From the NCBI RefSeq assembly GCF_013167455.1, contig NZ_CP038328.1: DNA of 64,000 nt. One strand, written 5' to 3'. Position 1 is the stretch's first letter. Every line of letters begins with the position of its first letter. Origin of the DNA: Escherichia coli O157:H7 (lineage in GTDB: Bacteria > Pseudomonadota > Gammaproteobacteria > Enterobacterales > Enterobacteriaceae). Shown here piece after piece: positions 48,001 through 57,000 of the stretch. The position numbers were made by a program.

Positions 48001-51000
48001 ATTGAAGCCAGCCTGACCGTGCTGGCAGAGATGCAACAACAAGGCCTGGTAAAACATATTGGCCTAAGCAACGTCACACCGACGCAGGTTGCAGAGGCGC
48101 GCAAGATTGCCGAAATCGTCTGTGTGCAGAACGAATACAACATTGCTCATCGTGCTGATGACGCAATGATTGAAGCTTTGGCTCGTGACGGCATTGCCTA
48201 CGTGCCGTTCTTTCCGCTCGGGGGCTTTACGCCGCTGCAATCTTCCACGCTTTCCGATGTTGCTGCGAGCTTGGGTGCAACACCAATGCAGGTGGCGCTG
48301 GCGTGGCTGTTACAACGTTCACCGAATATTTTGCTGATCCCAGGGACGTCTTCTGTTGCGCATTTACGGGAGAATATGGCTGCTGAAAAGTTGCATCTTT
48401 CTGAGAAAGTGTTGTCTACGTTGGATGGTATTTCGCGAGAATAACGAATATACAAAAGGGAAAGATGCATTTCCCTTTTGTTTCTTTTTTAATGGCATGG
48501 AGTGCATATGTTTAAGCCCAGGCTTTGCAGCTGGATAGGTTTACTTCCCCTGTTTATGCTGAGTCTTCCAGTACAGGCGGAACTTCGATGCGTTGCAAAT
48601 GCAGTTGATATTGAACCTTTTTTTTCTGCGGCTACCGCTGAAGATAAACAACAAGTTGAACAAGCTATCAACAGTAGCGTGAATCTTGTCCCCTTCGGTT
48701 TATCTGCATCGGACTGGAAAGTGCATCGTGGCGATTTAGTGGTAGAAGGTAATATAGAGAGTAATCAAAAATTGATTGTTCTTGGCAATTTGACAGTCAA
48801 AGGTAATATTTCCACTTTCTCTCTTTCTAATCCATGGGTTATTCTCGGTAACGTGACGGCAACGAATATAGTTACGGATTCACCACTGTTAATTACCGGT
48901 TCGATAAATGCAAGTGGACTGGTATTTATCGACTCATATTACGATAATCCGTCTACGATTAAGGGGAGTATTAATGCGCGTGGGATATTTATCAATGACA
49001 TAATTGCACCTGTTGTTGCGTCTTCGACAAATAGTGAATTCATGGTCCGTGCGAGTGACAAAAATGACACTGAAAATGTCAAAAAAGCGCTGATGATAAT
49101 AAATCCTGATGCATATTATTGGGGTCTAATAAATGATGAAGATGCTCTGAAAGAAATTTTTAAGCGAAGCAATATTCGCATGGCAGGGAATGTCTGTAAT
49201 CAGATGAAAAAAGAAGCGCTGTTTCGCCTTAAGCCTTCTCCTGAGTTAGTGCAGGAATTGCAAATGCTGGATGAAGGCAACGTTGCTGCATTTGAAGGAC
49301 GAGATATTGCGACATTTGATCTTGCCATAATGCGAACTCTCCCAAGGCTTAAAGGAATTTCAGCTAACCTACGCAAACAACTTATTAATAGCAATGATGG
49401 ACAAACGATTGAAAGTATGGCGAGATATATGCCTGACAATGAGATTCTGGAGTTGACCGATCAGCAATTGGGTTACCAGCCTGTTGTTCTGGGGTTGCTC
49501 GACCGTGAACCGCTCTCTGTCGAAATAATGACGCGAATGAGTCATCTACCTGATGGTGTCGGTCCGTTGAATCTTGCGCTACGTGAAAATCTCCCTCTGG
49601 ATATCGTCATGACTCTGGCGAAAAGAGATTGGGATATGATCATTCAGGAGCTTTATAAAGATGCGTGGTTATTGCCCGAATCCATTATTGATGGCTATAT
49701 CCGCAGTGATGATTCCTCTATTCGTCAGGTCGGTGCTGGAGGACAACTCACCTACAATCAGGCAATGCAGTTGGCGAACGATTCATCAAACGATGTTGTC
49801 ACAAGCTTAGCGTTAAAGCTGGCAGAGATGAAACACCATGGTCAATTGTTGCGGATGACGCCACAAGAGAGTGACAAAATAGCAGTATATTTATACCAAA
49901 AATTCGAGAATGACGATGATCTAATAGGTGCGTTATTTTTAGCGTTGCCAGATAACTTACAGTTTAATTTTGTTAAAAGGATGGAGAAAAAATCCCCTGC
50001 CTACTTTTGCTGTCGGGATATGCAGATAATTCACTCTGACGCTGCTTTACAACGGTTATTGACACGTTTCAACGATCCTGAGGGGTGGAGTAATCTGGCG
50101 AAAAATCAGTATCTGAGCACGTCGATGAAACAAAAAATTTGGCAACGTGCTTTATCGCATCGGAAAAATAATCCCAAAGCAGATTCAGATGCATATGAAA
50201 CCAGCGCTGATATGATTTTGTCTGAGCTTATCAGCTACGGTGAAGTTGATGACCAGATGCTATTAAATGCCACCTCTCTGATACGTTCGGACGACTGGGA
50301 CTTTTTAGAGAGTGCATTAATTAGTTGGGATAATTTACCCGCTGTTGTTCTCAAGGAATTACAGCAAAACACGCCACGCAATGATATTTGGGCGAAGTTT
50401 TTTCTGAGGCAGGAAAACAGTTCCCGTGCGCAGGTTAACGAAGCGTTACGTGTTTATTATGCACTAGACCCCGATGCGTTAGCACAACTGGATGTACTGG
50501 CAAAACAACCGGATCGTATATGGTGGAGTACACTGGCGAAAAGCAATCTCACATTTTTCAAGTTCGGCGCACTTAACAACCGCCACACACCGCCTGCAGT
50601 ACTGGCGGCAGAAATTGATCCCGAGTGGTGGATTGTGGCGATGAATAATCCCCGTTTTCCAGTTGATGTATTAAAGGCGAGGCTGAAACGTGATCCTTTG
50701 CTGGCGTTAAAGCTTGTTAACCCTGAACTGGATTTAGTTCGCCAGCTGGCGCTTAACGGTAAGACGCGCGCAATACGGGAACAAGCGATGAGAAAACTTG
50801 ATGAGTTGTATTGAATAACAGCGTAATAATTTTTAACCACTTGATTTATTGGGGATAATCATTCCTGACAGTGAGTCCCCAATACCTTGATATATTCTGA
50901 ATTTTTAATGAAGCGTCGTGTTGCGATATCTCCGTCAGGGGAATTGATGCACCATAGCGCAAACCGAATTATCAAGGATTGATAATGACGCTCTACCAGA

Positions 51001-54000: not shown

Positions 54001-57000
54001 AAACTCACTCGCAGGTCTTGCCAATGCCATCGAACCGGGCGGCATTCTCCTCTACACCGGGCAGCCGTGGCACCCACAACTGGAGCTGATTGCCGGGGTG
54101 TTAACCAGTCATAAAGATGGTAAACCGTGGGTAATGCGCGTGCGTTCGCAAGGGGAGATGGATTCACTCGTGCGTGATGCCGGATTTGATAAATGCACAC
54201 AACGGATTGATGAGTGGGGCATTTTTACGGTTTCGATGGCGGTGCGTCGTGATAACTGAACGCCGGAACGTATTGCTACAAGGCGCTGGCTGGTTATTGT
54301 TGCTGGCCCCGTTTTTCTTCTTCACCTATGGATCTCTAAATCAGTTCACCGCGGTTCAGGACTTTAACAGCCATGATATCCCCAGTCAGGTATTCGGCTG
54401 GGAAACGGCGATCCCTTTTCTTCCCTGGACTATTGTCCCTTACTGGAGTCTGGATCTTTTATATGGATTTTCGCTGTTCGTTTGTAGCTCGACATTCGAA
54501 CAGCGCCGACTTGTCCACCGGCTTATTCTGGCAACGGTAATGGCCTGCTGCGGTTTTTTTCTCTACCCGCTGAAGTTTAGTTTTATCCGTCCTGAAGTGA
54601 GTGGGGTGACAGGATGGCTATTTTCGCAACTTGAACTGTTTGATCTGCCTTATAACCAGTCTCCTTCGCTGCATATTGTTCTCTGCTGGCTACTTTGGCG
54701 TCACTTTCGTCAGCATCTGGCTGTGAGGTGGCGTAAAGTCTGCGGCGGATGGTTTTTACTCATCGCCATTTCGATGCTGACAACCTGGCAGCATCATTTT
54801 ATTGATGTCATCACAGGGCTGGCGGTAGGTATGTTGATTGACTGGATGATACCCGTCGACCGTCGTTGGAATTATCAGAAACCTGATCAACGTCGAATCA
54901 AAATAGCACTGCCATATGTCGTAGGCGCGTGCGCGTGCATTGTGTTGATGGAGCTAATGATGATGGTTCAGTTATGGTGGTCAGTCTGGTTATGTTGGCC
55001 AGTATTATCGCTACTCATTATTGGCCGTGGGTACGGTGGGCTTGGCGCGATAACAACAGGGAAAGATAGTCAGGGGAAACTCCCGCCCGCCGTTTACTGG
55101 CTGACATTGCCCTGGCGCATCGGGATGTGGCTATCTATGCGTTGGTTTTGTCGTCGCCTGGAGCCGGTGAGCAAAATGACTGCTGGTGTTTATTTAGGGG
55201 CGTTTCCACGACATATTCCGGCACAGAATGCGGTTCTGGATGTCACCTTTGAATTCCCTCGCGGACGAGCGACAAAAGATCGACTCTATTTCTGTGTACC
55301 GATGCTGGATCTGGTGGTTCCGGAAGAGGGGGAGCTCCGACAGGCCGTGGCGATGCTGGAAACATTACGCGAAGAGCAAGGCAGCGTTCTGGTCCATTGC
55401 GCATTGGGATTATCGCGCAGTGCGCTGGTAGTGGCGGCATGGCTGTTATGTTACGGACACTGTAAAACAGTTGATGAAGCGATTAGCTTTATTCGAGCCA
55501 GACGCTCGCATATTGTGCTTAAGGAAGAGCACAAAGCGATGTTGAAATTATGGGAAAACAGGTAAGTGGATTGAGATGTGGACTGAACTACAGTCCACAT
55601 CAAGATCGTGTCCGGTTATGCAGCAACAATACTGTCGATGGCTGCTTTCGCGTCAGACTGCGCTTTCGCTGCCATTTCCGGACCGTATGCGATCCCTTCG
55701 GCGAAGACAAATTTCACATCGGTAATGCCGATAAAGCCCAGGAACGTGGACAGATACGGCGTCACCAGGTCCGTTGGTCCATCTTTGTGGATCCCACCGC
55801 GGCTGGTAATAACGATGGCTTTTTTACCCGTTACCAGACCTTCCGGACCATTCTCGGTATAGCGGAAAGTAACGCCTGCACGTGCAACCAGGTCAAAATA
55901 GTTTTTCAGCTGAGTCGAGATGTTGAAGTTATACATCGGTGCCGCAATAACGATAACGTCATGGGCTTTCAGCTCGGCAATCAGCTCATCGGAAAGTGCC
56001 AGAGCTTCCTGCTGACGCGTAGTCAGCGGCGCATCGCTCGGACGCAGAGCGCCAACCAGTTCGCCATCCAGTACCGGAATTGGATTTGCAGCCAGGTCGC
56101 GAACGGTGATTTCATCAGCGGAGTGCTTTTCGCGCCATTGTTCAACAAAATAATCGGACAACTGATTAGACTGAGAGTACCCTGCCAGGATGCTGGATTT
56201 AAGAACTAATACCTTGCTCATGGTGTTTCCTTATAGATATTTGAATGGGCGATGCCCCGTTGCTTGTTGACACTTTATTCACAATCCTGCCACAGAGATA
56301 GCGCAATAAATCGAAGCCTATGTTCGAATTTATTGAACAACGCATAGAAAGCCGCGATGTGGTACTCTATATCTATCATTTCAAAGAAAATTAATCAGGC
56401 AGACTACTGCCCACTAACGTTATGACAGAACAACAAAAATTGACTTTTACGGCCTTGCAGCAGCGGCTGGATTCGCTGATGCTGCGTGACAGACTGCGTT
56501 TTTCTCGCCGTCTGCACGGCGTGAAGAAGGTTAAAAATCCTGATGCACAACAGGCCATTTTCCAGGAGATGGCGAAAGAGATTGACCAGGCGGCAGGGAA
56601 AGTCCTGCTGCGTGAAGCGGCACGACCGGAAATTACTTATCCTGACAATTTGCCGGTTAGTCAGAAAAAACAGGACATTCTCGAAGCGATTCGTGATCAC
56701 CAGGTGGTGATAGTCGCCGGGGAAACGGGTTCTGGTAAAACGACTCAGTTACCGAAAATCTGTATGGAGCTGGGGCGCGGGATTAAAGGGCTGATCGGCC
56801 ATACCCAGCCGCGTCGCCTGGCGGCAAGAACGGTAGCGAACCGTATTGCGGAAGAGCTGAAAACGGAGCCGGGCGGTTGCATCGGTTACAAAGTGCGTTT
56901 CAGCGATCACGTAAGTGATAACACGATGGTCAAGCTAATGACCGACGGTATCCTGCTGGCGGAGATCCAGCAAGACCGCCTGCTGATGCAGTACGACACT

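Follow-up and report, generated by a model that had tools for sequence, protein, structure and literature searches.

The ynbABCD Operon of Escherichia coli O157:H7: A Reduced Form of a Proteobacterial Six-Gene Module with a Predicted Role in Lipid Head-Group Metabolism

Introduction

In the phosphatidylglycerol (PG) pathway, CDP-diacylglycerol (CDP-DAG) and a phosphorylated alcohol give a phosphorylated lipid, which is then dephosphorylated; where PgsA is followed by a PTPMT1-type enzyme, the second step is performed by a Cys-based phosphatase of the dual-specificity (DSP) fold. PTPMT1 is a phosphatidylglycerophosphate phosphatase, and Escherichia coli already possesses PgsA and PgpA/B/C. In the inositol-lipid cluster of Bacteroides thetaiotaomicron, a CDP-alcohol phosphatidyltransferase first builds a phosphatidyl head group bearing a phosphate, which a phosphatase takes off, and an AUR1/SMS-type PAP2 enzyme then moves the phospho-head group to another lipid; the genes are BT_1523 (PIP synthase), BT_1525 (PIP phosphatase), and BT_1522 (AUR1-like IPC synthase) (PMC9246714). 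Both schemes resemble what can be read in the ynbABCD operon of E. coli, which is the subject of this analysis.

One gene of this operon is already known from the CdsA/YnbB step of MPIase biosynthesis, in which CDP-DAG is the activated intermediate (Sawasato 2019; Sato 2019). YnbB synthesizes CDP-DAG in vitro, and its over-production raises MPIase about 3-fold and restores it under CdsA depletion (PMC6362211; PMC7018664). It is described as dedicated to a non-bulk lipid, is dispensable, and does not substitute for CdsA in bulk phospholipid (PMC6362211; PMC7018664; PMC11413397). Deletion of ynbB leaves phospholipids and MPIase unchanged (PMC7018664), MPIase also being normal in the knockout of PMC6362211, while eukaryotic CDS enzymes likewise support MPIase synthesis (PMC7018664) and the later steps toward MPIase are said to have no known enzymes (PMC11413397). 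The published MPIase work treats ynbB alone, apart from its operon partners, the six-gene module described below, and its presence outside Enterobacterales; YnbA is mentioned nowhere in PMC6362211, and our full-text literature searches returned nothing on the function of YnbA, YnbC, or YnbD. A sequence-only reading of this DNA had known of no defined product for the operon. That is true of the operon as a whole, for which none is published, but a biochemical assignment is partly in print, because YnbB is a published CDP-DAG synthase that affects MPIase.

Organization of the Locus

The window analyzed here is a stretch of 64,000 nucleotides of E. coli O157:H7 (NZ_CP038328.1), in which the region of interest shows 100% identity to E. 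coli O157:H7 chromosomes on which RefSeq names ynbA, ynbB, ynbC, and ynbD. All features lie on the plus strand. The operon occupies 50985..55565, the span given by the sequence-only reading, and its ends are exactly the ATG of ynbA and the stop codon of ynbD. That reading had described four overlapping or abutting genes: the four-gene operon is real and ynbA (50985..51590) overlaps ynbB (51590..52486) by 1 nt, but a 15-nt gap separates ynbB from ynbC (52502..54259), both genes being in one frame, and the last junction depends on the start codon of ynbD. With the TTG start of O157 (54273..55565) there is a 13-nt gap, and with the alternative GTG start at window position 54249, the choice of K-12-type annotations, an 11-nt overlap.

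A sequence scan inside ynbABCD found no promoter-like or terminator-like sites exceeding shuffle expectation. The ydbD-ynbA intergenic region (50815..50984) bears the predicted ynbA promoter, and a consensus scan of it gave no strong sigma-70 match. This promoter belongs to a group of BglJ-RcsB targets, RcsB being an envelope-stress regulator that acts with BglJ, and the BglJ/RcsB regulon lists ynbA, ynbC, and ynbD together; at some of these targets activation may act through relief of H-NS repression. In O157:H7 all four genes of the ynbABCD operon are intact, and the operon stays silent under standard conditions.

A Six-Gene Module Across Proteobacteria

The E. coli operon is a reduced form of a conserved proteobacterial six-gene module. 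Across 80 species loci the recurring members are A, B, a PlsC-type acyltransferase (AT), C, D, and a small membrane protein (X), and no others. A, C, and D occur all together in 78 loci, AT in 66, and B in 65, while X lies directly after D in 67. The module is also kept in Pseudomonas, Variovorax, Cupriavidus, Accumulibacter, and Bradyrhizobium. A natural YnbA-YnbC fusion exists, followed by D, AT, and B. Co-occurrence, this fusion, and the shared regulon listing suggest that the module works as one functional unit.

At the same azoR-hrpA site Citrobacter carries six genes, E. coli four, and Phytobacter three; AT and X are the two that E. coli has lost, with no remnant of either. The route had been proposed to be self-contained, which does not apply in E. 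coli given these losses and the 21% of its genomes without the full operon.

The Encoded Enzymes

The four enzyme classes assigned by the sequence-only reading were right, with two amendments: YnbA is non-canonical and the PAP2 half of YnbD is transferase-like. None of the catalytic residues of the six domains varies (66–81 orthologues), and the E. coli proteins keep them all.

YnbA (201 aa) is a variant CDP-alcohol phosphatidyltransferase that passes Pfam PF01066 (CDP-OH_P_transf) with 38.2 bits against a cut-off of 22, over aa 29–177 of the 203-aa ORF. Its motif is N69-x2-D72-G-x2-A-R77...G86-x3-N90-x3-D94-x3-D98, in which N69, D72, N90, D94, and D98 are invariant in 74/74 sequences. When YnbA is aligned to M. 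tuberculosis PgsA1 (6h53, E 1.2e-7), N69 falls at D1 and N90 at D3 of the signature D1xxD2GxxAR...GxxxD3xxxD4, so that two of its four Asp are invariant Asn, while D72 (D2) and the presumed catalytic base D94 (D4) are kept together with G, A, R, and G86. In PgsA1 the four Asp ligate two Mg ions, and inositol-phosphate binding depends critically on the Arg beside D4 (PMC6506517), a position occupied by Val in E. coli YnbA. Because two Mg-ligand Asp and this Arg are absent, the chemistry of YnbA may differ from standard alcohol phosphatidyl transfer. Basic residues R140, K148, R151, and R190 are invariant in the family. For all 46 of 46 members the best models are AIPS (down to 4e-26) and PIPS, ahead of PgsA, which is a likeness to Bacteroides, but the equivalog cut-offs of the two NCBIfam models (NF045883 and NF040950) are missed: 76 bits against 180 for AIPS and 48 against 170 for PIPS, the latter a difference from Bacteroides together with the Asn at D1 and D3. 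PgsA models match weakly (30 bits against a cut-off of 109), unlike the PG pathway. Judged by these profiles, YnbA is a divergent CDP-alcohol transferase nearest to synthases using inositol-phosphate or glycerol-phosphate; with Asn at two signature positions it is not a canonical one. Its phosphatidyl transfer is predicted to be CDP-DAG-dependent and to release CMP, a CDP-DAG synthase gene being co-located in 65/80 loci.

YnbB (298 aa) is a CdsA-type CDP-DAG synthase, as indicated here by family match and signature, with its activity taken from the literature. It matches PF01148 (CTP_transf_1) at 3e-70 (237 bits), and the CdsA signature S254-x-x-K257-R258...K263-D264...G271-H272-G273-G274-x-L276-D277-R278-x-D280 is conserved in 66 YnbB sequences. 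With 111 bits it stays below the cut-off of 385 set for the NCBIfam CdsA equivalog, as fits a paralogue.

YnbC consists of two enzymes. The N-terminal domain (52502..53299) is a monoacylglycerol-lipase/lysophospholipase-like alpha/beta hydrolase, with aa 32–266 matching Hydrolase_4 (PF12146; 3e-68, 230 bits), and its nearest solved relatives are the monoglyceride lipases of M. tuberculosis (2e-15) and human (5e-12). Neither the S115/D230/H260 triad nor the HG motif varies among 81 orthologues. A distant YnbC subfamily, found in FAS-type clusters, has no Ser-Asp-His triad. The C-terminal domain (53324..54259) covers aa 275–582 and matches Methyltransf_20 (PF12147) at 9e-152 (505 bits), with invariant SAM motifs D413-x-A-A-G417-x-G, D439, and D467-A-F. 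Its AF2 model (pLDDT 94) has Foldseek probability 1.00 to many SAM methyltransferases, the closest folds being the uncharacterized 3ocj (TM 0.67) and small-molecule O-/C-/N-methyltransferases; by this model the domain is a Rossmann-type class I SAM-dependent methyltransferase, and the methylated product that had been suggested is plausible.

YnbD carries an N-terminal 8-TM domain of the PAP2 superfamily (54273..55052), of sphingomyelin-synthase/IPC-synthase type, and a C-terminal Cys-based DSP-fold phosphatase (55170..55565). Motifs C2 (SGH-like) and C3 (SRx5Hx3D-like) are present as P131-S-L-H134 and S167-x6-H174-x3-D178, invariant in 72 sequences, and the C3 region of human LPP1 is matched by the YnbD profile (E 0.004). 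Of the C1 motif KxxxxxxRP, R106-P107 is conserved and the Lys is not. The N-terminal fold is closer to head-group transferases than to phosphatases, and this half of YnbD looks like a phospho-head-group transferase of the SMS/IPC-synthase branch rather than a plain phosphatase. Sequence identity to SMSr (8ijr) and yeast IPC synthase Aur1 (9ivc) is 11–14%. Unlike these enzymes, YnbD scores below the Pfam PAP2_3 gathering threshold (19.3 bits against 27), keeps the Arg-Pro remnant of the phosphatase C1 motif, and is a bacterial protein of a sphingolipid-free host, with its putative transferase fused to a cytoplasmic phosphatase.

The C-terminal domain matches DSPc (PF00782) at 8e-27 (94 bits against 33.5), with C376-x5-R382 and the general-acid Asp, D346, invariant. 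PDB DSP entries give profile matches up to 1e-17; by family profile, archaeal Tk-PTP (9e-16) and the lipid phosphatase PTPMT1 (1.9e-14), the best characterized full-length match, stand ahead of MAPK-type DUSPs. The P-loop of PTPMT1 holds extra basic residues, and that of YnbD (C-A-L-G-L-S-R-S) lacks these. The His/His/Asp motifs of the PAP2-type domain lie on loops with almost no K/R, and the phosphatase domain follows the most K/R-rich loop; from charge bias alone, the PAP2-type active site is predicted to face the periplasm and the phosphatase the cytoplasm.

A Possible Pathway

A lipid-head-group pathway remains the best reading of the operon, as originally proposed. We tentatively suggest, at somewhat less than an even chance, that the module makes and then uses a minor, dedicated glycerophospholipid in a flow of five steps. 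YnbB, whose activity is published, would make a local CDP-DAG pool from phosphatidate, supplied in other species by the PlsC-type acyltransferase. YnbA would then form phosphatidyl-X-phosphate by joining the phosphatidyl group to X-P, a phosphorylated alcohol; the Pfam call, the AIPS/PIPS scores, the retained D2 and D4, and the four invariant basic residues point to this step. The PTPMT1-like domain of YnbD would remove the phosphate in the cytoplasm to leave phosphatidyl-X, consistent with its intact CX5R and Asp, its PTPMT1 match, and its tether to the membrane on the K/R-rich side. YnbC, beside YnbA and fused to it in some organisms, would methylate the lipid with SAM and/or trim an acyl chain. 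Finally, with the lipid in the outer leaflet, the SMS/IPC-synthase-like domain of YnbD, whose invariant motifs lie on the K/R-poor loops, would cleave the DAG-phosphate bond from the periplasmic side, pass phospho-X to an envelope acceptor or water, and release diacylglycerol. Against this flow, no lipid product has ever been reported for the operon.

The comparison with known systems limits how far each can be followed. E. coli is not known to possess ceramide or an inositol-phosphate synthase, and the Bacteroides model therefore cannot supply the identity of X or of the acceptor. Unlike that cluster, the module has no myo-inositol-phosphate synthase among its six recurring genes, its phosphatase is of DSP/PTPMT1 rather than PgpA type and is fused to the transferase, and it further encodes a lipase-methyltransferase, a CDS of its own, an acyltransferase, and a small membrane protein. 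In the PG pathway nothing corresponds to the methyltransferase or to the SMS-like domain.

A bolder form of the proposal, which we regard as unlikely, is that the product is a phospholipid class new to bacteria, used as a periplasmic phospho-head-group donor that decorates an envelope acceptor; examples would be a methyl-capped phosphatidyl-polyol-phosphate (cf. archaeal PGP-Me) or, as the product of the Asn-variant YnbA, a pyrophosphate-linked lipid. If so, E. coli and many Proteobacteria would own a sphingomyelin-synthase-like transferase system without sphingolipids, and YnbD would be a single two-faced enzyme whose active sites lie on opposite sides of the inner membrane.

Alternative Explanations

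The operon could instead be a dedicated or back-up MPIase route, in which YnbA, rather than YnbB/CdsA, couples the CDP-DAG of YnbB to GlcNAc-1-phosphate to give GlcNAc-PP-DAG, and the PAP2 domain of YnbD recycles DAG-pyrophosphate in the periplasm as PAP2 enzymes do for undecaprenyl-PP. The 3-fold effect of YnbB and its rescue of CdsA depletion speak for this, as do the later-step enzymes stated to be unknown, the absence of YnbA from PMC6362211, and the two Asp-to-Asn changes, which would make the expected site of an anionic phosphate nucleophile less negative. We nevertheless find it improbable. MPIase is normal in the ynbB knockout; no glycosyltransferase or sugar-nucleotide gene recurs in any of the 80 loci; and B is the least constant member, with none within 10 kb in Proteus, Providencia, and Xenorhabdus. 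The module is present in Pseudomonas and the four other genera named above, which are not known to have the enterobacterial common-antigen sugars of which MPIase is built. None of the ynb genes is known to be essential. MPIase, in contrast, is reported to be essential (PMC6362211; PMC7018664), and the route leaves the DSP phosphatase and the methyltransferase without a role.

Lipid turnover or remodeling is a further alternative that we hold to be quite unlikely. Here the SMS-like domain of YnbD would be a phospholipase C on bulk phospholipid, YnbC would degrade DAG, MAG, or lyso-lipid, and AT, YnbB, and YnbA would rebuild a phospholipid of other acyl composition (a Lands-type cycle), for example in cold or envelope stress. 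The YnbC hydrolase is nearest to monoacylglycerol lipases, AT resembles (2.4e-20) the acyltransferase domain of Aas, an acyl-ACP:lysophospholipid acyltransferase, one variant cluster carries an additional patatin phospholipase, and the promoter answers to RcsB with BglJ; cold induction is reported for ynbB (PMC11413397). Such a cycle, however, does not explain the invariant methyltransferase and Cys-phosphatase domains, nor does it account for the most constant partner, found even in fusion with YnbC, being a divergent CDP-alcohol transferase of non-housekeeping type; and the acyltransferase is lost in E. coli, yet A, C, and D are under purifying selection.

Conservation and Decay in E. coli

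At least 80% of the operon is present in 4276 of 5426 complete E. coli genomes, and dN/dS among E. coli lineages is 0.08–0.60, which together mark ynbABCD as real genes and not chance ORFs. Two of six genes lost, three in Phytobacter, and 21% of genomes without all or part of the operon indicate that the E. coli version may be partly disabled. That it is a mere evolutionary remnant, silenced and eroding with no pathway output, so that the MPIase effect of YnbB is a side activity of any CdsA-type enzyme, accords with the BglJ-RcsB target promoter (with H-NS relief possible at some targets), the AT-rich 5' part (GC 0.42–0.45 over ydbD-ynbB), the traceless gene losses in the Citrobacter-E. coli-Phytobacter series, absence of the operon from 658 of the 5426 genomes and internal deletions in about 490, the ynbB dN/dS of up to 0.60, and the activity of eukaryotic CDS enzymes in MPIase synthesis, but is doubtful, since 79% of genomes carry the four ORFs intact, dN/dS is mostly 0.1–0.25, every catalytic residue is kept, and the operon is inducible, with BglJ-RcsB, acid/LEA peptide, plasma stress, and cold as reported inducers.

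The ynbABCD Operon

In a genome comparison, the operon at window positions 50985-55565 on the plus strand shows 100% identity with E. coli O157:H7 chromosomes, and RefSeq annotates the matching region as ynbA (50985-51590), ynbB (51590-52486), ynbC (52502-54259), and ynbD (54273-55565), flanked by ydbD and azoR/hrpA. Because these genes are already known and annotated, the locus itself is no discovery. The compact four-gene packing claimed by the sequence-only reading is borne out: ynbA and ynbB overlap by 1 base, ynbB and ynbC are separated by 15 nt within one reading frame (52484-52502), and ynbC and ynbD by 13 nt with the TTG start of O157, the GTG start of K-12-type annotations giving an 11-nt overlap. 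No promoter- or terminator-like sites beyond shuffle expectation were found within ynbABCD in a sequence scan. The domain calls of that reading are also confirmed by Pfam, which places CDP-OH_P_transf in YnbA, CTP_transf_1 in YnbB (3e-70), Hydrolase_4 (3e-68) and Methyltransf_20 (9e-152) in YnbC, and DSPc in YnbD, where the PAP2_3 match is sub-threshold. Its observation stands, and its interpretation as a lipid-head-group pathway is supported in part. The proposed pathway would vary a known type of lipid-head-group chemistry, and three features make it unusual: an Asn-variant transferase, a YnbD predicted to be two-faced, and a six-gene ancestral module with A-C fusions. One E. coli record (P0002) is an 889-aa YnbB-YnbC read-through fusion containing PF01148, the hydrolase, and PF12147, as expected from loss of the ynbB stop codon.

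A Wider Six-gene Module

Among 1.84 billion representative proteins, relatives of YnbC at E<1e-30 form 409 clusters. A profile built from a 12-sequence YnbC subset and applied to one genome per species gave 536 confirmed matches, and 80 loci from Enterobacterales, Pseudomonas, many Betaproteobacteria, and Bradyrhizobium were retained for comparison. With A to D standing for ynbA to ynbD, AT for a PlsC-type acyltransferase, and X for a gene following D, approximately 50 of the 80 loci (Pseudomonas, Betaproteobacteria, Bradyrhizobium) have the order A-C-D-[X]-AT-B, 11 (Citrobacter, Hafnia, Buttiauxella, and relatives) have A-B-AT-C-D, and 13 (Proteus, Providencia, Xenorhabdus, and short contigs) have A-C-D alone; A, C, and D are jointly present in 78. 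The acyltransferase is recognized by PF01553 (1e-18 to 4e-24) and by its HX4D and FPEGTR motifs. Gene X encodes a predicted membrane protein of about 150 aa that belongs to no Pfam or NCBIfam family (examples are L044 13136-13591 and L002 13010-13429), and a profile search locates its gene immediately downstream of ynbD in 67 of the 80 loci, Citrobacter among them. There is no trace of AT or gene X in the E. coli window, and the E. coli operon is a reduced copy of the wider module, which is common to Pseudomonas, Cupriavidus, Variovorax, Accumulibacter, and others. A metagenomic protein of 807 aa (P0123) joins YnbA and YnbC in a single reading frame, with D, AT, and B downstream of its gene; the N-terminus of the fusion shares 45% identity with YnbA and keeps the variant motif. 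In another protein, P0151, a region that weakly matches CDP-alcohol transferases precedes the hydrolase and methyltransferase domains, and the neighbouring genes encode a patatin, a CDS, and a PAP2_3 protein.

YnbA and YnbB

Alignment of YnbA with M. tuberculosis PgsA1 gives N69-xx-D72-G-xx-A-R...G86-xxx-N90-xxx-D94, in which the first and third of the four signature Asp residues (D1 to D4) of CDP-alcohol phosphatidyltransferases are replaced by Asn, a replacement invariant in 74 of 74 orthologues. In PgsA1, Mg-1 is held by D1, D2, and D3, Mg-2 by D3 and D4, and D4 presumably acts as the base (PMC6506517); YnbA thus keeps this base and one ligand but has an altered metal site. The Asn-bearing motif is a conserved variant, not decay. 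For all 46 of the family members compared, the best models are the archaetidylinositol-phosphate and PIP synthases, ahead of PgsA, with scores below cut-off in every member. YnbA also has Val where PgsA1 has an Arg critical for inositol-phosphate binding (PMC6506517).

The CdsA signature of YnbB is complete. According to published work (PMC6362211; PMC7018664; PMC11413397), this CdsA paralogue produces CDP-DAG in vitro, its excess raises the glycolipid MPIase about 3-fold and restores MPIase under CdsA depletion, bulk phospholipid synthesis is beyond its capacity, and deleting it gives no lipid or MPIase phenotype; cold induction of ynbB is also reported (PMC11413397). One rival reading is a route dedicated to MPIase, with YnbA as the enzyme that forms GlcNAc-PP-DAG; the overexpression results speak for it and the deletion result against it, and we consider it unlikely. 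YnbA goes unmentioned in PMC6362211. Seen against the module, the YnbB/MPIase work reads differently: YnbB is the member most often missing from a larger set whose other partners, above all YnbA, lie outside the published study. Full-text literature searches turned up neither a functional study of YnbA, YnbC, or YnbD nor a characterization of the PF12147/Methyltransf_20 family; the Lipocone paper among their results is unrelated. BglJ-RcsB activates transcription from a published ynbA promoter (PMC3950696) that our consensus promoter scan missed, and ynbA, ynbC, and ynbD move together within the BglJ-RcsB regulon in the literature.

YnbC and YnbD

The hydrolase domain of YnbC has monoacylglycerol lipases as its nearest relatives (2e-15) and an invariant S115/D230/H260 triad. 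All SAM motifs are present in the methyltransferase domain, for which sequence and profile searches of the PDB returned marginal matches only; in a fold search its model (pLDDT 94) resembles generic small-molecule methyltransferases and does not reveal the substrate. The most distant relatives, at 32–35% identity, occur in ACP-dependent fatty-acid or aryl-polyene-type clusters, and since the hydrolase Ser and His are lost they constitute a separate subfamily. An acyl or carboxyl methylation target suggested by these clusters (ACP/KAS/KR/PPTase or aryl-polyene-like) was down-weighted for this reason. The PF12147 proteins of L082, L092, L093, and L094 show such a degenerate alpha/beta-hydrolase domain, and the distant clusters encode ACP, ketoacyl synthase, MaoC dehydratase, ketoreductase, an old-yellow-enzyme-type reductase, and PPTase, or are aryl-polyene-like. 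An analogy with archaeal PGP-Me was considered and set aside; the PGP-Me methyltransferase itself is given no identity in the review consulted. The sole ynbC phenotype in the literature, polyphosphate accumulation with delocalised LtrA in a transposon mutant, is indirect and strain-specific, not being seen in the Keio background, and was rejected as a functional clue.

The His/His/Asp catalytic motifs of the PAP2 type are invariant in YnbD. Its topology was derived from charge counts on AF2 helix boundaries in 72 orthologues, a hydropathy-threshold version being uninformative. Loops L2, L4, L6, and L8 contain 2.6–5.9 Lys and Arg residues and loops L1, L5, and L7 contain 0–0.5; of the loops bearing the PAP2 motifs, L5 is free of Lys and Arg, and L3 has more acidic than basic residues (K+R 2.1, D+E 3.3). 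From this charge bias the PAP2-type active site is predicted to be periplasmic and the C-terminal domain cytoplasmic. The latter has an invariant CX5R motif and Asp, and its best profile matches are an archaeal PTP (9e-16) and the lipid phosphatase PTPMT1 (1.9e-14), both ahead of MAPK-type DUSPs.

A Possible Lipid Route

We tentatively propose, at somewhat less than even odds, a route that runs from YnbB through YnbA, the DSP domain of YnbD, and YnbC to the SMS/IPC-synthase-like domain of YnbD. YnbB would supply a dedicated CDP-DAG pool, its CDP-DAG synthesis being documented in published work, and YnbA would form a phosphatidyl-X-phosphate, X being here the head-group alcohol and not the gene. 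The DSP domain would dephosphorylate this product on the cytoplasmic side, YnbC, held beside YnbA, may methylate and/or deacylate the lipid, and the SMS/IPC-synthase-like domain would transfer phospho-X at the periplasmic face to an acceptor or water, releasing DAG. E. coli is not known to make inositol phosphate or ceramide, so inositol phosphate could not simply be taken for X, nor ceramide for the acceptor; the Val replacing the critical Arg of PgsA1 likewise argues against inositol phosphate as X. The scheme mirrors the PIP synthase, PIP phosphatase, and AUR1-like synthase of Bacteroides (PMC9246714). A system of lipid turnover and remodelling, with which the lipase-like domain of YnbC would also agree, appears improbable as an account of the module.

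E. coli phospholipid metabolism is usually deemed fully mapped, and with the proposed route ynbABCD would be a remaining uncharted branch in the most thoroughly studied bacterium. A vague "y-gene" operon is thereby resolved into specific proposed steps: a CDP-alcohol transferase variant whose metal site carries Asn at two ligand positions, a lipid phosphatase resembling PTPMT1, a predicted periplasm-facing SMS/IPC-synthase-like transferase, and a tethered lipase-methyltransferase.

Reduction in E. coli and its Relatives

At the azoR-hrpA site Citrobacter has 6 genes, E. coli 4, and Phytobacter 3 (A-B-C). In Phytobacter massiliensis (L009 8443-12396) only ynbA-ynbB-ynbC are found, directly followed by azoR and hrpA, and the locus has no AT, ynbD, or gene X, which carries the reduction one stage beyond E. 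coli. The full operon is present in 4276 of 5426 complete E. coli genomes, about 490 have internal deletions, and 658 are without it. These losses would suit an eroding relic in E. coli, a reading we find doubtful; dN/dS between E. coli lineages is 0.08–0.30 for ynbA, 0.24–0.60 for ynbB, 0.15–0.18 for ynbC, and 0.14–0.25 for ynbD. The six-gene versions of Citrobacter and Pseudomonas are better material for a product search than the eroded E. coli operon. Five of 4782 ynb-region matches in the E. coli collection are on plasmids and not on chromosomes.

The intermembrane phospholipid-transport operon ydbH-ynbE-ydbL (window 38241-41390) immediately precedes ynbA in Citrobacter, Phytobacter, and Superficieibacter (L002, L003, L006-L009); in O157 it is about 10 kb from ynbA, with an autotransporter, pdxI, and ydbD between. 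PMC4951805 describes the interval as a hot-spot where gene content varies within E. coli. Just upstream of ynbA, ydbD (48502-50814) is a 768-aa DUF2773 "bactofilin" gene with a low GC content of 0.41–0.45, and in strain STE15 (L086 1-217) it is a frameshifted pseudogene. Two consecutive plus-strand ORFs of 972 and 819 aa (41767-44685 and 44905-47364), the second annotated by RefSeq as an autotransporter outer-membrane beta-barrel domain protein, may represent a split or two-part ydbA-like autotransporter.
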